64,000 nucleotides of DNA from Patescibacteria group bacterium. GTDB lineage: Bacteria; Patescibacteriota; Microgenomatia; Daviesbacterales; UBA10151. The notes beneath the pieces were generated by a model. That model made no database searches. It had not been told where the DNA came from and saw only the letters and a list, made by a program, of their open reading frames with translations. Every line of letters begins with the position of its first letter. The stretch's first letter is position 1. The DNA is taken from assembly GCA_943356485.1 (NCBI GenBank), contig CALRFD010000002.1:37032-101031 (forward strand), read 5' to 3'. A program made the translations under genes and the position numbers. Shown piece by piece: positions 13,266 through 45,524 of this stretch.

Positions 13266-13864
13266 AGTTTTCCTAAAATAGTTGTTAATTTTGACTCATG
13301 AAATCCGGAAAAATCATTCCAGGCCACAATCACAGTTACGGTCTTTTGAGTTTTAAAAGAATCATTCTCAGAATAGTCAGAAAGAATAACCATTCTTTTA
13401 AAAGAGCTACCAACTTCTTCTACATTTGGCGGATACTTCATATCCTTCTTAGGAGAGTATGATGTCAGATACTCTAATATTCCATCATTTTTGATATTGA
13501 AATAGCAGTATGTCGGCGAACTACCCTGAATATCAGAATCTCCACAATGACCACCACCAATCCGGTAATCCCATATTGAACCTGATAAGTTATTGCAATC
13601 TATACTGCTGTTATTTCCATCCCAGGAGTTAACCTGGGTACCAAGAGAATCTAGATTCTTAATACATTGATTTCTATCCCGGCCTATTCTCACCTTTTCA
13701 ATTCCATCCTGAGCTAACTTTGTTGCTTGCGCCTGATTTGTGGCAAACTGGGCATTCCTTAAAGCAGAAATTGTAGCAAAGGTAAGTGCACCCACAATTA
13801 GGACTGTCACTGTAATTACCACAATCAACTCTATTAAGCTTTGACCCCTTTCAGTTAATATCAA
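13262..13864 (-). CDS. Pilin-like protein with a prepilin N-terminus
   Basis: MILTERG|QSLIELIVVITVTVLIVG. 4-nt overlap with the downstream gene. Confidence 0.7.
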   Translation of the reverse strand: MILTERGQSLIELIVVITVTVLIVGALTFATISALRNAQFATNQAQATKLAQDGIEKVRIGRDRNQCIKNLDSLGTQVNSWDGNNSSIDCNNLSGSIWDYRIGGGHCGDSDIQGSSPTYCYFNIKNDGILEYLTSYSPKKDMKYPPNVEEVGSSFKRMVILSDYSENDSFKTQKTVTVIVAWNDFSGFHESKLTTILGKL

Positions 13865-14432
13865 TCGAACCTCCTTTATTTATGGTTACTGACTTTGTGT
13901 CTTCGCTCTCAGATTTCTTTATTAAGTTAATAACCATATCGCTAGTTTGTAAAAAACATTGTTGAGTAGAATCCTCATCCTCAAATGACACCTTACCTTC
14001 AAGATAAGAAAAAGTTACTTTAATGAGCTTACTGATCACAGCATCACCTGCAGTAAAGGATGAAGGACAGCTAGCGCAACCACCTGAGCCGCAGATAGAA
14101 GAAATCAGAGCAGGGGAGTGAATAGTCCAGGTTCTTACATAAGCATCTTGTGTTTCACAAACTAAGTTGACAGTATTCCGACCGGAAATAACTATCGACC
14201 AGGAAGCCCCTCCATGGCCACCACATCGTACCCCTGAGGTTGCATTAGTTTGAGCTAGCCTAATATAACTTTGAACGTCAAATGCCACATTTTTAAGATT
14301 AGCATCCTCACCAAAAGAGCGAAGGTTAACAAAAACAACTACTGAGAGGATCGCCATAATCGAGATAACCACCATCAACTCTATTATGGTGAAGGCCTTT
14401 TGGGTCAGTAATTTGTTTTTGGCAGTTAACAT
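13851..14432 (-). CDS. Pilin-like protein with Ala at the predicted -1 cleavage position
   Basis: ...LTQKA|FTIIELMVVISIMAILS is a consensus prepilin helix with E at +5, but A replaces the usual G at -1. Confidence 0.6.
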   Translation of the reverse strand: MLTAKNKLLTQKAFTIIELMVVISIMAILSVVVFVNLRSFGEDANLKNVAFDVQSYIRLAQTNATSGVRCGGHGGASWSIVISGRNTVNLVCETQDAYVRTWTIHSPALISSICGSGGCASCPSSFTAGDAVISKLIKVTFSYLEGKVSFEDEDSTQQCFLQTSDMVINLIKKSESEDTKSVTINKGGSIDIN

Positions 14433-14483
14433 TTTAGGAGCTATTACATTGTCAATTGTGGATTGTTAATTGTCAAATGCTTT

Positions 14484-14987
14484 TTACGGTTTTGCTAGGC
14501 CAAAGTTATGTTTGGTGTCAGCAAAACTACTACAGCTTTGGTCGCCAGTTTGAGGAGTAGATAACTTGGCATAAAGGCAATAATCAATACAACTTCCCGG
14601 GTTGTCAGCTGTACAACCAGCGCCTTTTGGAGTATACAAATACCCGCTATCACCGCTAAACCTCGGGTCTTTTGGAATTTTACCGAGATAAGTTTTACCC
14701 TCATCCGGAGAATTTAAAGAACTACCTGATTTTACTAAATCAGAAGAAGGTGGATAATAATGCTGGTCTGCTCGGTACTGCTCAAGTGCGGATTGAATAA
14801 ACCTTAAATCAGAGACTCTTTGCGCATCCTCCGCCTTATCAATAAATATCCTGTAATTAATCAACCCGATAGCCATCAATATCCCGATAATAGACACAAC
14901 TATCAAAAGCTCAATAAGGGTAAATGCTTTAGAATTTCTAAATAATATTTGTTTAACAATACATTTACTCCAAACTAAAATGGGCAT
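14484..14987 (-). CDS. GspG/PulG-like pseudopilin with Ala at the predicted -1 position
   Basis: ...NSKA|FTLIELLIVVSIIGILMAIGLINYRIFIDKAEDAQRVSDLRFIQSALEQYRADQHYYP matches the T2SS-G family pattern (..AIP.Y...KAK...SDLR....AL..Y..D.G.YP). The 21-aa leader is unusually long, so the true start may be a non-ATG codon further in. Confidence 0.6.
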   Translation of the reverse strand: MPILVWSKCIVKQILFRNSKAFTLIELLIVVSIIGILMAIGLINYRIFIDKAEDAQRVSDLRFIQSALEQYRADQHYYPPSSDLVKSGSSLNSPDEGKTYLGKIPKDPRFSGDSGYLYTPKGAGCTADNPGSCIDYCLYAKLSTPQTGDQSCSSFADTKHNFGLAKP

Positions 14988-37915: not shown

Positions 37916-39061
37916 ATGTATTTAAAATTATTGTTAATAGGTATTTTTTTGGCTGTTTTATACAGTTTTTTAAGCTTACCTTTTGTACAAAAGAGTTTAA
38001 ACCTTACTTATAATCTCTCTAAAAAAGAAGTTCTAAAACTTAACTTCCCCTTACTACATACTTCTGATTTTCAAAGCTTTGCTATATCTAAGGAAACATC
38101 CAGAACCTCATACGGCCTCTACAAATTAACCCTTCTTCCAATTAACGGAGAATCTCCCATCATAACTGATAATGAAACAGCCGGGATGGGTGGAGCCCTG
38201 TATTTAGGTGATGTTTCTCCACAATCCTCACCTGATTTAAAAAAAGCGGCTTATATTTCAAAAGATAACCAGCTTAAAATAATAAGTGCAGACGGTAAAT
38301 CTGAAATTGAATTACCTGATAATTTATTAGTTTCTTATATTTCAGGTTGGTCACCTGATTCAAAAAAGCTGATTGTCTACTCCCAGGAAAGCAGTTACAT
38401 CGGTGGAGAAGGAGCAGCTACAACACCCACTCCTAGGCCTGCTACAAAATATTTACCTTCAGGGTTTTATTTATTGGATTTAGAAAAAGGCGAGGGAAAA
38501 TTATTAGCAGAGCTAAAAGGTGTGGATAAATGGATTAACAATGAGAAGGTTTTAACAGTAACATCTGGGGAAAAAGACCAATTTGCGATATTTAATATTA
38601 AAACAGGACATTTAGATACTTCTACCTTAAAAGGATTATTCGATCAATATTTTGGAGTTCAAACAAATTTCAACCATGATGGCAAACTTTGGGCTTTAAC
38701 TTTAGGCAATACAGGTAATGATCCTAGTAAACCCAGCTCATCTCTGATAGTCCTGGCGCAGTTTCCTAAAATTGAAGGAATTACAATTGATTCAGGTAGA
38801 TGGGCTGATGTTCAGATGCCAAAACTATCACCTAATGCAGACAACTTAATTTATATAAGAGCCGAACGTAACAGTGGGGAAGATGAGCAGGATGCAATTT
38901 ATTTAAATCAAAACTCTATTAACACTAGACTTACCAAAGGATACCCTCTAATGTGGACTGATAACAATAATTTTATTTACTCATACAATCCTAACTACCC
39001 GCAATTGCAGCAATACTATATTTTTGATATAAGTACAAAATCCTCAAGACGGTTAATTTAA
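37916..39061 (+). CDS. Secreted or anchored hypothetical protein, possibly with a beta-propeller fold
   Basis: N-terminal TM segment, then a Ser/Gly/Asp-rich body with repeated blade-like segments. The call is weak. Confidence 0.45.
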   Translation: MYLKLLLIGIFLAVLYSFLSLPFVQKSLNLTYNLSKKEVLKLNFPLLHTSDFQSFAISKETSRTSYGLYKLTLLPINGESPIITDNETAGMGGALYLGDVSPQSSPDLKKAAYISKDNQLKIISADGKSEIELPDNLLVSYISGWSPDSKKLIVYSQESSYIGGEGAATTPTPRPATKYLPSGFYLLDLEKGEGKLLAELKGVDKWINNEKVLTVTSGEKDQFAIFNIKTGHLDTSTLKGLFDQYFGVQTNFNHDGKLWALTLGNTGNDPSKPSSSLIVLAQFPKIEGITIDSGRWADVQMPKLSPNADNLIYIRAERNSGEDEQDAIYLNQNSINTRLTKGYPLMWTDNNNFIYSYNPNYPQLQQYYIFDISTKSSRRLI

Positions 39062-39984
39062 TTATCAAATTTGTTACCTGAATGAAAAGCCTTATGCACA
39101 TCTTTTAAATGCGCATTTGTAACATGGGTATATATTTGGGTAGTTGAGATATTGGTGTGTCCTAACATTTCCTGAACAGATCTGATATCAGCCCCATTTA
39201 TCAGTAAATCCGTGGCAAAATTATGCCTTAGCGTGTGTGGGGTAGCTTTAATTGCAAAACCCAACTGTTTAACATACTTTTCTACAATCCTTTCTATAGA
39301 ACGGGTAGTAAGCCTCATAGCCTCACCGTTATCTTCCATCTCAATTTTTCCCTGAAACCTGATAAATAAAGGTTTAAAGCTGTCTTTCCTAAAACTTAAA
39401 TATTTCAGGATCCAACTTGCAGCAGAATCAGAGATAAAAACCACCCGCTCTTTCCCTCCTTTACCCACAACCCCAAATTCTTTCCTATTTAAATTTATTG
39501 TATCCCGGTTAAGGGATGCTAGCTCCGAAACACGAAGCCCGGTTGAAAAAAGAGTTTCTAAAATTGATCTGTCTCTTATTCCATCTTTAGTTGTAATATC
39601 AGGCGCCTCCAAAAGCTGTTTTAAACGGGTATCGTCTAAGACTTTAAGCGGTCTTGGATCTGACTCTCCCAATTCAACCTTTTCGCTAGAGAGAGAAATT
39701 ACGTCTATCTTTGCCAGATACTTTAAAAATGATCGAAGGGCTATCATGAAATAATTTTGAGTAATTCTTTTTAAACTTTTCTGACTATTTGGATCTACCC
39801 AACGGGAAAGGTGCAGTCTATATTTTCTAATCAGGTTTAAATCAATCTTATCAGGACTGATGTCTCCGGAAAAAGATAAAAAGCGCTTTAGATAATGATC
39901 ATAGTTTTTGATAGTAAGCTTTGAAACATTCCGTTCAATCTCTAAATATTCTAAAAAGTCGGTAATCAGAGCAGAAAGAATCAT
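39058..39984 (-). CDS. Tyrosine site-specific recombinase, XerC/XerD family
   Basis: C-terminal catalytic box HTLRHNFATDLLINGADIRSVQEMLGHTNISTTQIYTHV containing the catalytic RHRH and Y residues. 308 aa. Confidence 0.85.
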   Translation of the reverse strand: MILSALITDFLEYLEIERNVSKLTIKNYDHYLKRFLSFSGDISPDKIDLNLIRKYRLHLSRWVDPNSQKSLKRITQNYFMIALRSFLKYLAKIDVISLSSEKVELGESDPRPLKVLDDTRLKQLLEAPDITTKDGIRDRSILETLFSTGLRVSELASLNRDTINLNRKEFGVVGKGGKERVVFISDSAASWILKYLSFRKDSFKPLFIRFQGKIEMEDNGEAMRLTTRSIERIVEKYVKQLGFAIKATPHTLRHNFATDLLINGADIRSVQEMLGHTNISTTQIYTHVTNAHLKDVHKAFHSGNKFDN

Positions 39985-39987
39985 AAA

Positions 39988-40734
39988 TTAGAGCAAGGTC
40001 AGACCCAATATTCCAAGAATAGTTAAAACTAAACCTATAATTGCAAACATGTAGGTAACTTTTTCGAAACCAGCCGGAGGAAGAGTTTTTAAAGGGATAA
40101 AAGTCGCTGAAGGGGTTGCAGCTCCAACAGCCCCTGCTGGTGGATTTATTGCTCCTACTGGCGTAACCTGAGTTGGAGCAGGAGTAGCGCCACAAGAACC
40201 AGCTCCAATGGTATAGCTGCCGTTCAAAACAGAATCCAGGGTTTCAGTAGCTGTTCCTTTTTGCACTACGTTTGAATCGGAAGTTTTGCCTTTGTCGTTC
40301 GGGTCAAAATCAAATGTCATTTGGGTTACACCAGTTGAGGCAGTATCTTTAACGCTAAAGTTTATTGTGGCGAGTTTTCCGGAACCGGAATAGGGTGAAG
40401 TTGGTGTAGCAAGCCCGGAAACTTTTATTATACCTAAATCATTTCTTATCTCGCTTCCTGGATAATCTGGATAGACCTTTCCCTGGGTATCAATACTTAC
40501 AGCATTAAACCTCGATGAATCAAAATTCAAATAGGCATCTGTTCCGTCCGTTGCAACTCCTTTAGTGTCTAAAAGAATATCTATTACAAAAGGACAGTTC
40601 CTATTAAAAGTACCTGTTGCAGGCGACAATGACAGAGTAGAAGCTAAAGCGGAAGAGGCTCCTAAAAATACAAAGAGTGATATGGAAAATATAGATAATA
40701 TTTGAGATTTGAGATTTGAGATTTGAGATTTCAT
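39988..40734 (-). CDS. Secreted cohesin-like domain protein with a C-terminal hydrophobic anchor. A heptanucleotide SSR begins at its start codon
   Basis: Signal peptide, then a domain homologous to the neighbouring 205-aa protein (IKVSGL...GKLATINFSVKDTASTGVTQMTFDF resembles LRVSGIVG...GNFGTINFKAKLSGITDVSLDF). The C-terminus YMFAIIGLVLTILGILGLTLL is hydrophobic. Confidence 0.55.
   Translation of the reverse strand: MKSQISNLKSQILSIFSISLFVFLGASSALASTLSLSPATGTFNRNCPFVIDILLDTKGVATDGTDAYLNFDSSRFNAVSIDTQGKVYPDYPGSEIRNDLGIIKVSGLATPTSPYSGSGKLATINFSVKDTASTGVTQMTFDFDPNDKGKTSDSNVVQKGTATETLDSVLNGSYTIGAGSCGATPAPTQVTPVGAINPPAGAVGAATPSATFIPLKTLPPAGFEKVTYMFAIIGLVLTILGILGLTLL
40701..40728 (-). repeat. Heptanucleotide simple-sequence repeat (AAATCTC/TCTCAAA)x4 immediately 3' of the ATG of the 39988-40734 gene
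   Basis: The plus strand reads tttgaga x4 followed by tttCAT. The coding strand reads ATG AAA TCT CAA ATC TCA AAT CTC AAA TCT CAA ATA. Confidence 0.9.
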
Positions 40735-41348
40735 TGTATATTTATCTTCACTCCTGAAACTTTCTCCAGTATATCTTTGCTGTTTCCAACCTCAACCATA
40801 TTTGTGTCATTTGTTAAGCCCGGGCTAAAATCTAACGACACATCAGTAATACCGCTTAGTTTCGCTTTAAAATTAATAGTACCAAAATTACCATTGCCAA
40901 TAAACCCCGGTTTACTAATCCCAACAATACCCGATACTCGTAAAACTCCTTTATCAGAATTAATATTTAGGGCAGGATAATCATCATAGACATCACCCTT
41001 TATAAAACCTGACGCAGAGGCTTCAAGTTTAGTTGGATCATACTTAATTACCAAATCCACTCCCTGGGTAGGATGCCCTCCGGTTGAAATCCTAACAGTT
41101 ACAGGCACTAAATCTCCAACATGGTAAATTTTATTTGCGCTCCCAAGCATGATCTCTCCTGCTGAAGAAGTAGTCTGTTGAGCTTGTTTTGAAGTGCTAA
41201 CCGGGGTCAAGAGAGTTTTTAAGCCAATTATTAATTCGACTAAAATAACTAGAGCTAATATAACAAAAATTATCCGCAAAATTGGCAACCCTTTTTTAGG
41301 ATTATTTTGAAAATCTTGCGCATGGTATGTGAGTGTTTGATTATCCAT
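40731..41348 (-). CDS. Membrane-anchored cohesin-like domain protein, 205 aa
   Basis: N-terminal TM segment plus a domain paralogous to the downstream gene. 4-nt overlap with its neighbour. Confidence 0.55.
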   Translation of the reverse strand: MDNQTLTYHAQDFQNNPKKGLPILRIIFVILALVILVELIIGLKTLLTPVSTSKQAQQTTSSAGEIMLGSANKIYHVGDLVPVTVRISTGGHPTQGVDLVIKYDPTKLEASASGFIKGDVYDDYPALNINSDKGVLRVSGIVGISKPGFIGNGNFGTINFKAKLSGITDVSLDFSPGLTNDTNMVEVGNSKDILEKVSGVKINIQ

Positions 41349-41350
41349 AT

Positions 41351-43579
41351 TTAAGGCTCCACTTGATTACTATTATTAAACTCAGGCAACATACAAGACC
41401 ACTCAAAGGAGTTACAAACTCCATCCCGGTTAACGTCACAATTCTTTCCTGCGTTTACCGGTCCCCATTGTGAACGCAGTAAACTACCATCTACATTATT
41501 TATAGTACCATCTCCATTATAGTCTCCGATAGGGAGATTTATACTTAAGTTATTGGTACCTGAAGAAGCTATAAACGGGGCTGAACACTTCCTTAAGCTA
41601 AGCGGCGCTTTAATACAGGCAATATAGTTCTCACCACTTTTTAGTTTAGTTTTAATATTAGTTATATTCCCGTCTCTGTCGATCGTGACCTTTTCTCTGG
41701 ATTTTTGAGTATGATCCTTGTCTAAAACTAAAGTCAGATCCACATTATCCTGATCAAAATTTCTTTGCGCCCTGCAAAATAATTTTGCCCCAAAAGATAG
41801 CTGTGTTATGCCAACTAAGCATTGCTGCTCCAGAGATTTTTGACCATCCTTAGTAGTTAAAGTAGCAAAATATTGTGTACCTATTGTGGTTGCAGATACC
41901 GGAGGAGAACTTAAACGAGCAGTCACTGCATTATTAGACCAATTTTCCGGAACAGGATTACCGCCACCATTTCTAAGTGTAACTGTTCCGGCAGTTGAAC
42001 CAAAATTATTCCCAATAAATTTAAATAATAAATCAGATGAGTTAGTCAAATCTATCTCACAGGCAAAACCGGAAACCACCGGTATCGGCCCAACTAAATC
42101 TATCTGGAATGGATAAGGATTTCCGTTTATTGTTTGTCCTTTATCATCAACAAATTGCACATAAATAAATTTTGTACCTATAGTCTGATTTACAAAGGTA
42201 ATATCCTGCCTAACCCCACCTTTCTGATAAGCAATTTCATGCCTGGCGTTTGGATTAGTTAAATCAGAAGCATTTTCTGCGTACCAAACTTTTATTATAT
42301 TTTGAGTTGTAGACTGAGTTGGAGTAGGGGTAGGAGTTACAACGCCTTGAGTAAAATTTACATCATAGGTTGATAAAATCCTGGTATTATTTTTATCAAA
42401 AACTGCAAAAGTGTGCAAGCCAGCCGGAACATTTACTGACTGGGTTGAAGACCAGCTAACTGAACCATTACCAGTCCCATTTCCAATAAGAGTCCATCCT
42501 TCACTTAGATTACATGAACTGGGCGTACAGGTTCCAGAACTATAGTAAAAAACATTCCAGTCAGTACCGGAATCTGCCCTGACAGTTAAAGTCAAATTTG
42601 GCCATAGGTTATTAACCTTAATTGCCGGATTTGGTGAAACAGACAAGGATACAGCCGGAGCTGCAACAGGAGGAGTAGGAGTAGGGGTTACCACACCTCC
42701 TCCAACACTGCAGGTTGCACAGGTACCATTACTGCACCAGCCCTTATTACATTCATCACAGGATCCAGCTCCACCGCTACCACAGGCAGATCCACAGACC
42801 TTGCCTATAGAACAGGTTGCACTGCCTCCATTATTTGGAGTTGGTGCAGGAGTAGAGCTGGCGGCAGGACGTGAGCCTATATACTCAAGCTGCATACATC
42901 TGGGAAGGAGCGTCTGACCTTCTGACACAAACCCACCATAACACCAGTTACTGGTTACAGGATTAACAAAGGGATCAGTACTAACAGGACAATCGCTGTT
43001 AGTTTTACAAAAATGGCTACAATCAGCATGCCAGAGATAATTAGCAGGTGGAGTCTCCGGATTATCCCGACAAGTATCTGGAGGTGAGACATGAGAACCG
43101 GTATATTGAAGCTGCATACATCTGTTTCCAGAATCAAACTCATAACACCAATTACTGGAGATTGGATTAACATTATTTGGATCCGTACTATTGGCCGGAC
43201 AATCGCCGTGAGTATTGCAGGTTTTGCTACAATCCGCTTTCCAAATATAACTCGCATTTGGCAAAGGAGCATCAGGAGGATTATCAGAACAATCCGTTGC
43301 ATAGGCTGTTTTAACCAAACCCTGAACTAAAATACCGGTTTCTGTAGGGGAAACAAAGTTTAGGGTCACTGTTGGACAAGTCAAAACTTTTTTACCATTT
43401 TGATCTATTGTACAGTTATTATTTATCAGTTGAACGCTGTCTGTCGCTGCTTTAGAAAATAAAATCTGCTGTCTTCTGGCTAAATTTATGGTTAAAGGAA
43501 TAGCCAAGACTAAAATAGCCAGGATTAGAAGATTTATTGTGTTTTTTTTACTAAAAAGCTCTTTAAGATAATCCTGCAT
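41351..43579 (-). CDS. Large Cys-rich secreted protein, paralog A (742 aa), with a dockerin-like C-terminus
   Basis: Signal anchor, then KAATDSVQLINNNCTIDQNGKKVLTC...VKTAYA, duplicated WCYEF...RCMQLQY / WCYGG...RCMQLEY modules, and a C-terminal DYNGDGTINNVDGSLL ... DVNRDGVCNSFEW that looks like a Ca-binding dockerin repeat. Confidence 0.6.
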   Translation of the reverse strand: MQDYLKELFSKKNTINLLILAILVLAIPLTINLARRQQILFSKAATDSVQLINNNCTIDQNGKKVLTCPTVTLNFVSPTETGILVQGLVKTAYATDCSDNPPDAPLPNASYIWKADCSKTCNTHGDCPANSTDPNNVNPISSNWCYEFDSGNRCMQLQYTGSHVSPPDTCRDNPETPPANYLWHADCSHFCKTNSDCPVSTDPFVNPVTSNWCYGGFVSEGQTLLPRCMQLEYIGSRPAASSTPAPTPNNGGSATCSIGKVCGSACGSGGAGSCDECNKGWCSNGTCATCSVGGGVVTPTPTPPVAAPAVSLSVSPNPAIKVNNLWPNLTLTVRADSGTDWNVFYYSSGTCTPSSCNLSEGWTLIGNGTGNGSVSWSSTQSVNVPAGLHTFAVFDKNNTRILSTYDVNFTQGVVTPTPTPTQSTTQNIIKVWYAENASDLTNPNARHEIAYQKGGVRQDITFVNQTIGTKFIYVQFVDDKGQTINGNPYPFQIDLVGPIPVVSGFACEIDLTNSSDLLFKFIGNNFGSTAGTVTLRNGGGNPVPENWSNNAVTARLSSPPVSATTIGTQYFATLTTKDGQKSLEQQCLVGITQLSFGAKLFCRAQRNFDQDNVDLTLVLDKDHTQKSREKVTIDRDGNITNIKTKLKSGENYIACIKAPLSLRKCSAPFIASSGTNNLSINLPIGDYNGDGTINNVDGSLLRSQWGPVNAGKNCDVNRDGVCNSFEWSCMLPEFNNSNQVEP

Positions 43580-43688: not shown

Positions 43689-45524
43689 TCAAAAACTACA
43701 TGCATCTTTAAATAAATCCTTTATGTCTGAAGCAAAGCTAGCCAGCCTGTCACAACTAAAGTTAGATAAAAAAGCTGTTCGATTTCCGGTTGCATCTGCC
43801 ATATCCAAAAGATCCTGGTTACTAAAAGATCCTAGTCTAGAAGAGGGAAGTGTGGCCAATCTGCTTTTAGGAAACAGGTTCAAAAGATCACCGTTGCTAA
43901 ACGAGATGATCGCTTCATTAGGCAACATATCGCGGAGATTAGAGGGCAAACCCAACAATACCTGATTACTGCAATTTGGCCAGGTCGAGATATCAACTGA
44001 GACATTACAACTGGGAGGAACTGGAGTAGGAGCGGGGGGCGCTGCAGTTGGCCCAGGGGTAACAACAGGAGGGGTCGAACCTGCATTTTGTTGAACAGTT
44101 ATATTTGTAGCACATTTATTGTCTACCGCCCCTCCTACATTCCCGTCCAACAAATCCCCATTAGCTGCATGTAAGGTTATGAATAATGCATGAGAACCAC
44201 CAACCATATCTGAGGGGATAACAAATGGAATACTGGCAGAAGGCGAAGTATTCTCCTTAACTTGAGTCCAGGATGAAACAGATGGAGCAGATTTACCTAT
44301 TTCGCTATTTGATGCCATCCAAACTTTTATCGACCCCGGAGTACCGGTGTAACTGATAGAAATTGAAGCACTATCACCAGGTCTTCCGTTATTTCCTGAA
44401 TACAAACTGACACTGCCGCATTTAACAGCCTGAGCAGTTGTATTTGTTGAACCAGCTCCGGCAGAAGACAATGGGGCAGCAGAAGCAACCGGTGCTGAAG
44501 CAACCAGATCTATTTGAGCAGGATATGGAATAGCTTGGATTTCATTACCTAAGTTATCTTTAAATAGCACAAATAAATATCTTGGACTGGGAGCAGCAGG
44601 CGCATCACTAAAATTAAAATCGCTAACAGTTACACCGCCCTGGGTATAATCCAGCCAGTCTGCTCTTTGCAAAGCTGTCGGGTTTTCTCCATATTTATAT
44701 TTAACAGTCACTCTTAGTGCTGCTGTTGGTGTTGGAGTAGGGGTAGGTGTTGGAGTAGGCGTAGAAGTTGGTGCTGCTGTTGGTGTTGGAGTAGGGGTAG
44801 GTGTTGGAGTAGGCGTAGGGGAAGCAGTCAGGGTTGATACTCTTAAAGGAGTTCCTGCAGGAGCAGAGGTTGGATTTGCACCAGCGCCATTTGATCCTCT
44901 TGGAAGTGTTGGTTGCGGGTCTAAATTTCTTATTGGAGTATTTGTAGACCCTCCTTGCCCTTCTAAAATAGGTGGCGGTTGAAAACTACCTGTAGCTTGT
45001 GGCGATACTTCATTTGAAACTACACATTTGGCTCCGCTATCAAACACTCCTTGACTGATAGCCTCACACTTTTGTCCGCTATCACATTTCTCGCTGGCTT
45101 CTACTAAATGATTGTTCCACCAGGGGAATATACAAAGATTTAAAGGCAAGTCACATATTTTACGATAAATCTTCTCCGGATCATCAGCAGGATTACAATA
45201 GTAATTTGCACCAGAACCAGCAGCATAGGCTGTTTTTACTATACTGAAATCTACTCCTTTATCTGAAACAGCAGTTGTATCCAAGGGTGAGACAAGCCGG
45301 AACGAAATCCCCTTAGTACAGCTTAAAACCTGCTTATTATCTTGTACCTTTACGCAGCTGCCATTTAAAAACTGTATATTAGTCGATGTTGCCTTTGGCT
45401 TAAAAATTTGGGTTTTACCAACCAGGAAAACTCCGGCGATAATACCTACCAGAAGAATTATAATCAAGGCCAGATGTGCAACACCTCTCTGGCTTTTAGA
45501 TTTAAAGAAGAACCTTGTTAACAT
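43689..45524 (-). CDS. Large secreted protein, paralog B (611 aa), with a Pro-Thr linker and degenerate dockerin-like C-terminal repeats
   Basis: N-terminus KPKATSTNIQFLNGSCVKVQDNKQVLSC...VKTAYA, the conserved block RYLFVLFKDNLGNEIQAIPYPAQIDLV, a (PT)n linker, and C-terminal SNGDLLNLF / SNQDLLDMADATGNRTAF. Confidence 0.6.
   Translation of the reverse strand: MLTRFFFKSKSQRGVAHLALIIILLVGIIAGVFLVGKTQIFKPKATSTNIQFLNGSCVKVQDNKQVLSCTKGISFRLVSPLDTTAVSDKGVDFSIVKTAYAAGSGANYYCNPADDPEKIYRKICDLPLNLCIFPWWNNHLVEASEKCDSGQKCEAISQGVFDSGAKCVVSNEVSPQATGSFQPPPILEGQGGSTNTPIRNLDPQPTLPRGSNGAGANPTSAPAGTPLRVSTLTASPTPTPTPTPTPTPTAAPTSTPTPTPTPTPTPTAALRVTVKYKYGENPTALQRADWLDYTQGGVTVSDFNFSDAPAAPSPRYLFVLFKDNLGNEIQAIPYPAQIDLVASAPVASAAPLSSAGAGSTNTTAQAVKCGSVSLYSGNNGRPGDSASISISYTGTPGSIKVWMASNSEIGKSAPSVSSWTQVKENTSPSASIPFVIPSDMVGGSHALFITLHAANGDLLDGNVGGAVDNKCATNITVQQNAGSTPPVVTPGPTAAPPAPTPVPPSCNVSVDISTWPNCSNQVLLGLPSNLRDMLPNEAIISFSNGDLLNLFPKSRLATLPSSRLGSFSNQDLLDMADATGNRTAFLSNFSCDRLASFASDIKDLFKDACSF
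44721..44818 (-). repeat. Tandem 44-bp exact direct repeat with 54-bp period, encoding the (PT)n linker
   Basis: tgctgttggtgttggagtaggggtaggtgttggagtaggcgtag occurs at 44721-44764 and again at 44775-44818. Confidence 0.9.

Follow-up and report, generated by a model that had tools for sequence, protein, structure and literature searches.

A heptanucleotide tract at the start of a cohesin gene

The DNA analyzed here is a 64-kb stretch (64,000 nucleotides, referred to throughout as the window) from an uncultured groundwater bacterium whose lineage lies in or near Candidatus Daviesbacteria, within the Microgenomates of the Candidate Phyla Radiation (CPR), and the element under study is a tract of heptanucleotide repeats fused to the start codon of a gene for a surface protein of 248 amino acids (aa). 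This gene occupies positions 39988..40734 of the minus strand according to the table of open reading frames (ORFs), with its ATG at 40734-40732. The minus strand reads ...ATACA ATG (AAATCTC)x4 AAAT ATT ATC..., and the tract itself, four AAATCTC units followed by AAAT, was located at 40700..40731 on that strand by Tandem Repeats Finder (TRF; period 7, 4.6 copies, 100% matches, score 64); together with the ATG it spans 40700-40734. It encodes residues 2-11 (KSQISNLKSQ) and the first two bases of codon 12, all within the n-region of the signal peptide. The original prediction, made from the letters of the window, had placed a fourfold heptanucleotide repeat joined to the start codon at 40701-40734, which is right to within one base. 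The repeat is perfect, its unit length is not divisible by three, and it lies in the 5′ coding region from codon 2 onward, as expected of a contingency locus.

In 100 dinucleotide-preserving shuffles of the window the 21-nucleotide (nt) pattern of three units is expected 0.00 times, and in a scan of all 64 kb the tract is the sole perfect tandem repeat with a unit of at least 5 nt and at least three copies. The remaining simple repeats in the window are homopolymers of 8, (AG)5, and (CAAG)3, bearing out the earlier description of the surroundings as otherwise poor in repeats. Given the zero expectation in shuffles, the agreement of two assemblies, and the homologous arrays found in many independent genomes (both described below), an origin by chance or by faulty assembly is scarcely credible. 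A programmed -1 ribosomal frameshift site was also considered and rejected, since AAATCTC fits the pattern X XXY YYZ in no frame and no excess structure is present downstream.

The 248-aa protein comprises a signal peptide at residues 1-31 with a predicted ALA|S cleavage site, a cohesin beta-sandwich at 32-177, a disordered Pro/Thr linker at 188-216, and a membrane helix at 222-247 that follows an LPPAG motif conserved in the ortholog alignment. Its score against the Pfam Cohesin profile (PF00963) is 30.3 bits, relative to a cut-off of 24.1. The AlphaFold2 model (predicted local distance difference test score, pLDDT, of 80.6) contains a helix at 3-24, the beta-sandwich at 32-177, and the C-terminal helix at 222-247, and the top Foldseek match of the model is the type-I cohesin 6kgf_C (E=1.2e-10, template modeling (TM) score 0.83). 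Both the profile score and the nine-stranded beta-sandwich fold thus place the protein in the Cohesin family. The segment encoding the signal peptide, codons 1-31 (40642..40734, minus strand), includes the modeled helix 3-24 and is the hot spot for period-7 arrays in the orthologs. The product is predicted from these features to be a secreted, membrane-anchored protein with a single cohesin, encoded beside a dockerin-bearing partner; the signal peptide, cohesin fold and C-terminal membrane helix agree with its earlier description as a secreted surface protein, and its predicted exposure on the cell surface is a property expected of the products of contingency loci. Separately, the region at 39994-40095 (residues about 214-247) contains a conserved KTLPPAG sequence and then the membrane helix, without a basic tail. 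None of the NCBIfam models of sorting signals matches this region, which may represent a sortase-like or anchoring signal of CPR bacteria that has yet to be described.

The gene belongs to a packed operon on the minus strand, in the order dockerin, cohesin, cohesin, xerC-like, with gaps of 2, -4, and 3 nt. The first gene (41351..43579) encodes a secreted protein of 742 aa with a C-terminal dockerin (Pfam Dockerin_1, 28.3 bits, cut-off 22.9), which is likely the ligand of the cohesin anchors. The second (40731..41348) encodes a 205-aa cohesin-domain protein with an N-terminal membrane anchor (Pfam Cohesin, 39 bits). Sequence and ORF table show that its TGA (40733-40731) shares an ATGA overlap (40731..40734, minus strand) with the ATG of the 248-aa gene (40734-40732), suggesting that translation of the two genes is coupled; no Shine-Dalgarno sequence is found within 5-10 nt of this ATG. 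The last gene (39058..39984) encodes a XerC/XerD-like tyrosine recombinase recognized by Pfam and NCBIfam matches, the latter rating it as a generic XerC/XerD. Its start lies 3 nt past the stop of the cohesin gene (TAA TTT ATG, window 39982-39990) and has no Shine-Dalgarno sequence either, from which translational coupling along the operon is suggested; the arrangement of the sequence indicates that the xerC-like gene is probably coupled to the 248-aa gene.

Effect of unit number on the reading frame

Alleles with 0-8 units were built in silico. Those with 1, 4 or 7 units encode full-length proteins of 241, 248 or 255 aa, respectively, and those with 0, 2, 3, 5, 6 or 8 units encode peptides of 14-52 aa. 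The earliest canonical in-frame start codon after the tract is a TTG located past the predicted cleavage site, so that a restart at this codon could not give a secreted protein. In these constructed alleles the product disappears with a change of one unit and is restored by a change of three; the frame arithmetic of the original prediction, according to which the gain or loss of a single unit turns the protein on or off, is therefore sound.

Period-7 arrays in orthologous genes

In a protein search 466 homologs were obtained, of which the nearest is 68% identical. Many of their N-termini contain peptides with a periodicity of seven residues (for example KYQISNIKYKI, STVYSLQSTV, and FTFYILHFTFYI), as results when a 7-nt repeat is read in three frames, and N-terminal sequence identity at lag 7 is 0.17, the highest among lags 1-14 (0.06-0.15 for the rest). 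Sixty genome loci and 80 metagenome loci were retrieved, and 99 non-redundant orthologs were analyzed in the 180-nt segment that precedes the conserved GTFN motif and encodes the signal peptide; an array was scored when it was perfect and had 2.3 copies or more.

This segment contains 24 perfect period-7 arrays, distributed over 21 of the 99 orthologs, compared with 0.1 expected from block shuffles that preserve local composition. The remaining 434 kb of the ortholog loci contain four, all of them just 3′ of the cohesin gene in the spacer before xer, and the Poisson probability of the signal-peptide arrays against this background is 2e-43. Of the other periods, 14 and 9 are represented by three arrays each in the 180-nt segment of the 99 orthologs, and periods 3, 6, and 12 do not occur there. 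When mismatches are allowed, TRF counts 30 rows of period 7 for the 5′ segment and 10 for the 3′ spacer, and the other 420 kb or so add 10 more; at the 5′ end of the upstream 205-aa gene there are no such rows, either in the window or in the orthologs (94 loci).

Two other origins of this excess were rejected, the second as a sufficient cause. An artefact of low complexity is incompatible with the near absence of arrays in the composition-preserving shuffles, and a model in which the signal peptide merely accepts insertions predicts in-frame periods, of which 3, 6, and 12 are absent and 9 is rare, whereas period 7 dominates. Comparison with orthologs had been suggested as a check of the original prediction, conserved residues across the tract being the unfavorable outcome; the residues are not conserved, and at the same place the orthologs have period-7 arrays that differ from that of the window in unit and in copy number.

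Turnover of the repeat unit

The n-region units found across lineages are AAATCTC, AAAACTC, and AAATATC, and those of the hydrophobic region include TTTTTAC, TTTCTAC, TTCTATC, CATTCTA, TTTATCA, ACTACCA, CTATACC, GCTTACA, and AGTCGTC. The unit differs between lineages, yet it is uniform inside each array. Loci L008, with (TTCTATC)x4.9, and L083, with (CTTTTTA)x4.3, both have perfect arrays, and their mature regions are 92.4% identical; the (TTTCTAC)x5.1 array of L005 lies in the same place as these two and has the same position and length as the (TTTTTAC)x5.1 array of L064. Arrays of the n-region begin at codon 2 throughout, as in the window, (AAATCTC)x4.6, and in L066, (AAAACTC)x4.9. The closest homolog, L152, has AAAACTC followed by (AAATGTC)x3, and L153 has (AAATCTC)x2 followed by AAATATC and AAATGTC.

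A substitution present in all copies of the array of one lineage and in none of the copies of its sister implies concerted evolution, and hence many slippage events, each of which, when it involves a single unit, shifts the reading frame. The pattern of the arrays is accordingly that of concerted evolution by slippage as far as sequence comparison can reveal it, and different but internally uniform units in close relatives are most simply explained by recurrent slippage that passes through frameshifted intermediates. On the evolutionary scale, and on that scale only, the tract changes much faster than its surroundings. By the same comparisons, the tract is real and hypermutable on that scale.

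Two observations on individual tracts are recorded here. The AAATGTC unit of L152 (L152:2501-2545) contains an ATG, so that three units offer a start codon in every frame, which could render the tract of this lineage insensitive to frameshifts. Proteins P0003 and P0007, two related alleles that come from one sample (ENA ERZ27296333) and are 75% identical, differ at the protein level in the length of the n-region tract (MSNVKCQIF and MKSKISNVKCQIF, respectively), and both of their contigs begin 56-59 nt upstream of the gene start.

Assemblies of the same species

The ENA assembly ERZ27280317 (locus L001) has four units and matches the window at 100% identity throughout the locus. The sole difference is one of 54 nt, equivalent to three units of a coding repeat with an 18-nt period at 44728-44819 (5.1 copies in the window), which lies in the Pro/Thr linker of a secreted protein of 611 aa (gene 43689-45524, minus strand). 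This in-frame repeat is three units shorter in L001, and a repeat of the cluster therefore does vary between assemblies.

A third, independent assembly (Logan, k=31, run ERR5863124), reached through exact-protein look-ups of the two neighboring genes, is broken at the tract: one contig ends in ...ACAATG(AAATCTC)4 and the next starts with ATCTC(AAATCTC)3AAATATT. In k=31 de Bruijn simulations a pure population of four-unit alleles gives a single unbroken unitig, and any population that includes alleles of five or more units gives a 3′ unitig start exactly as seen. For contigs of 2-4 kb, the chance of a break within a given 35-nt stretch is about 1%. The break is thus suggestive of longer alleles (at least five units) in the ERR5863124 sample, although it is no proof of them. 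Some short metagenome contigs begin close to the 5′ end of the gene; this too was considered as evidence of heterogeneity and was dropped as uninformative. In the metagenome and genome scans for strain variants of the same species, the closest relative is no nearer than 60% identity, and the exact-protein look-ups yielded only two further short assemblies.

The proposal that the tract is a phase-variation switch stands in part. The architecture is as claimed, and the 3-5 unit polymorphism that was to accompany it is not seen directly: two assemblies have four units, and the third breaks within the tract in a way that calls for alleles of five or more units. The comparison with host-associated bacteria rests, for the CPR, on an assumption.

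The neighboring recombinase gene

At least 54 of the 84 orthologous loci have the xer gene directly downstream of the cohesin gene, with spacers of -4 to about 130 nt. This association invites an explanation in which the neighboring tyrosine recombinase drives site-specific recombination with the heptamers as crossover sites, comparable to the Vpma system of Mycoplasma; the overlap region of tyrosine recombinases is typically 7 bp long, and heptamer arrays occur on both sides of the cohesin gene in different genomes. However, there are no credible inverted repeats within 10 kb, the best being 71-90% complementary over 17-34 nt, which is the level expected by chance. All genes of the cluster are co-oriented; the inverted sites and oppositely oriented silent copies of inversion of the Vpma/Xer1 type are both lacking. 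Moreover, the units are not conserved between species, and the recombinase, with its generic XerC/D score, looks like a housekeeping neighbor. We therefore regard a recombinase-driven switch as very improbable.

Hairpins, spacers and promoter-like elements

The region of the tract in the window folds no better than shuffled sequences (z -0.3 and -0.06), and a hairpin at the tract was rejected on the grounds that z is about 0; a hairpin does hold in L152, L153, and L070, in all of which an A-rich tract pairs with a T-rich tract of the h-region. In L152 and L153 (L152:2460-2650 and L153:2460-2650), where the A-rich tract follows the ATG and the T-rich tract encodes the hydrophobic core, this pairing makes a long hairpin across the start codon, with minimum free energies of -43 and -32 kcal/mol and z of about -2 and -1, respectively. 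In these two loci conservation is higher in the signal peptide than in the mature region, and identity across the whole protein is 58%.

Outside the signal-peptide segment, perfect period-7 arrays occur in the cohesin-xer spacer at L072:1367-1396, L104:1904-1923, L044:4080-4100, and L041:3751-3769. They are AT-rich hairpins with z of -1.3 to -3.0 in three of the four, and that of L041 folds no better than shuffles. In several cohesin-xer spacers the arrays overlap a TTGACA...TACAAT promoter for xer. A further array of period 7, which is imperfect (4.1 copies, 77% matches; TTGACAA, TTAACAA, TCCACAA, TTGACAA on the minus strand), is present in the window at 14448-14476, between the type IV pilin-like genes 13851-14432 and 14484-14987; it contains repeated -35-like TTGACA boxes and may be a length-variable promoter.

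These elements raise the question of whether the tract acts as a structural or regulatory element of RNA or DNA, that is, as a hairpin hiding the start codon, as an array bound by a protein, or as an antisense TTGAGA promoter. The long hairpins of L152 and L153 across the start codon are in keeping with the first of these, as are, for the last, the four -35-like TTGAGA hexamers in the reverse complement of the tract and the overlap of heptamer arrays with -35 boxes in the xer spacers and the pilin-gene spacer. Nevertheless, such a function is unlikely for the window, where folding is indistinguishable from that of shuffles, no Rfam match is obtained, the promoter scan is blank at the tract with overall promoter counts equal to the shuffled expectation, and no terminator signal is found there. 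Distances from the TTGAGA boxes to the nearest -10-like TATATT are 8, 15, and 22 nt, all outside the range of 16-18 nt, and they are independent of the number of units. Furthermore, units as wholly different between lineages as AGTCGTC, TTTTTAC, and AAATCTC fit no sequence-specific binder.

The same hairpins and spacers can be read as history instead of function. The arrays may be derived from a hairpin module with heptamer periodicity, the window retaining only one of its arms. In its non-adaptive form, this explanation regards the tract as hypermutable without benefit: a remnant of an ancestral, AT-rich, heptamer-periodic hairpin resembling a terminator or promoter, taken into the sequence coding for the signal peptide, homogenized by slippage and purged of frameshifts. 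The A- and T-rich heptamer arrays of the non-coding 3′ spacer, which form hairpins and overlap the xer promoter, speak for such an ancestor, as do the pairing of the A-rich n-region with the T-rich h-region in L152 and L153 and the conservation of their signal peptides beyond that of the mature parts. The window tract itself, having neither a complementary arm nor excess folding energy, does not fit this origin, and the other coding DNA of the survey, about 434 kb in all, has no repeats with a unit length that is not divisible by three. The explanation is taken up again below with the evidence on selection.

Some further elements were noted in the 5′ regions of relatives. In L070, L022, and L055, small GC-rich stem-loops lie about 140-170 nt upstream of GTFN, in frame within long N-terminal extensions and flanked by A-rich heptamers: CTCCCCTTCGGGGGC and CTGCCTTCGGCAG, with TTCG loops, and CTGCCTTCAGCAG, with a TTCA loop. 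They resemble a former intergenic terminator absorbed into the ORF. In the signal-peptide region of L072 and L128 there are in-frame insertions coding for IPAFAGMT-like peptides, IPAFAGMT being what a GC-rich palindromic repeat element typically yields on translation; the signal-peptide segment evidently accepts foreign in-frame insertions.

A candidate phase-variation switch

The reading that we put forward is that the tract is a slippage-prone heptanucleotide microsatellite in the sequence coding for the leader peptide, and that it serves as an adaptive on/off switch of the kind known from opa genes, a proposition for which we consider the balance of evidence to be even. In this mechanism replication slippage would add or remove 7-nt units. 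With 1, 4 or 7 units the ATG would be in frame and a normal signal peptide and cohesin anchor would be made; with any other number translation would stop after 14-52 codons and no anchor would be produced, and translation of the coupled, downstream xerC-like gene would probably fall as well. The array of the window is one instance of a family-wide feature: in Ca. Daviesbacteria the signal-peptide segment of this gene retains period-7 arrays, and turnover of the unit outpaces divergence of the flanking gene. The more comprehensive form of this proposal, namely a persistent contingency tract in groundwater Ca. Daviesbacteria whose period of 7 is inherited while its units turn over, and which stochastically switches a cellulosome-like cohesin-dockerin surface complex together with the coupled Xer in tight operons, we hold tentatively, as something short of an even prospect.

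Contingency genes typically have a surface-exposed product and a tract at the very 5′ end, as here, and with the tract in that position an off allele costs little. Contingency loci typically switch at 1e-5 to 1e-2 per generation. We infer that the rate in living populations would be useful and that the off state would carry an advantage.

Several findings weigh against a switch. No off allele was found among about 100 ortholog consensus sequences from GTDB genomes and metagenomes, of which about 21-30 loci have arrays, so that natural genomes provide on alleles alone in this sample; genome sequences of classical contingency loci commonly contain off alleles. All of the orthologs examined are in frame, have an ATG or GTG upstream, and have a normal n-region, and so do five homologs (P0006, P0025, P0043, P0045, and P0085) that appear truncated at the N-terminus because their gene calls begin at an internal Met. 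Identical arrays accompany identical mature regions across datasets in the pairs L083/L085, L126/L127, and L056/L102, and L103/L140 share array and signal peptide, L140 being too short for comparison of the mature region. Both full assemblies of the species show four units, which is short beside proven contingency tracts, and perfect arrays reach at most about five copies. The 5′ contig of the Logan assembly ends 2 nt short of the simulated unitig end. Finally, turning the gene off probably lowers Xer as well, which should be costly. This last point may explain the missing off consensus sequences, and it fits a purely deleterious view of the off state equally well.

Much of this is what the non-adaptive remnant described above would lead one to expect, in particular that every ortholog is in frame, that arrays stay within about five copies, and that the off state likely cuts the coupled Xer. 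If the off state were only harmful, on the other hand, point mutations that interrupt the array should be favored, whereas many lineages have perfect arrays of 30-36 nt, which are re-homogenized faster than their flanks diverge. A hypermutable but non-adaptive tract is, in our judgment, a serious possibility, if a somewhat doubtful one. The other alternatives, even taken jointly, are improbable.

Comparison with known systems

If the proposed switch is real, it would be the first phase-variation system based on simple sequence repeats (SSRs) to be described in the CPR; no literature linking repeat-mediated phase variation to CPR bacteria or Patescibacteria was found. Phase variation that relies on simple repeats is considered characteristic of pathogens and commensals adapted to a host. 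Here, uncultured, ultra-small bacteria would vary a surface attachment complex by means of contingency loci, which would imply that organisms presumed to live on other cells hedge their bets over attachment at the cell surface. The locus would also offer a concrete site at which population heterogeneity could be followed in public metagenomes, and an instance in nature of a microsatellite that writes and rewrites signal peptides.

The protein itself resembles the anchoring scaffoldins of cellulosomes, such as CaCohA2 (PDB 6kgf), in its fold (TM 0.83), its Pfam Cohesin domain, and its dockerin partner from the same operon. It differs from them in having a single cohesin with a membrane-helix anchor, in being encoded by an ultra-small CPR genome, and in the lack of evidence for a cellulolytic cargo. 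Phase variation is not known from cellulosome genes.

Heptanucleotide SSRs are established in Haemophilus influenzae, where TGAAAGA repeats lie in the hmw1A and hmw2A promoters and AACAACC repeats in or near genes of TonB-dependent receptors, the latter tracts having 1-7 units that differ between strains and in some cases truncate the ORF (PMC2651432). The tract described here has a unit of the same length, and the comparison indicates that short heptamer tracts can vary. The hmw tracts differ in that they belong to promoters, have 13-38 copies, and grade expression without a frameshift; furthermore, the organism in that case is a host-restricted pathogen and here a groundwater CPR bacterium.

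In Helicobacter pylori, oipA and similar genes are reported to carry a CT dinucleotide repeat in the 5′ region that encodes the signal sequence (PMC10564699). The arrangement is akin to the present one in placing a 5′ coding repeat in the signal sequence of an outer-surface protein and in switching by frameshift; it differs in the dinucleotide unit and in that on and off alleles are both common among isolates.

The tracts of Neisseria opa genes are considerably longer than the four copies found here. The two systems also differ in unit length, which is 7 nt here and 5 nt in opa, and in the position of the window tract in the charged n-region, although ortholog arrays often lie in the hydrophobic core, as in opa. 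The proteins are unrelated (here a cohesin beta-sandwich with a C-terminal membrane helix), and the present locus is a single gene, as opposed to a family of about 11. Nevertheless, the closest functional parallel to the proposed mechanism would be the opa genes, which switch through a CTCTT pentamer repeat in the leader-peptide coding sequence (PMC3745409): in both cases a repeat that is not a multiple of three lies in the signal-peptide sequence of a surface protein, is read in three frames to give residues compatible with a signal peptide, and breaks or restores the reading frame by a change of one unit.

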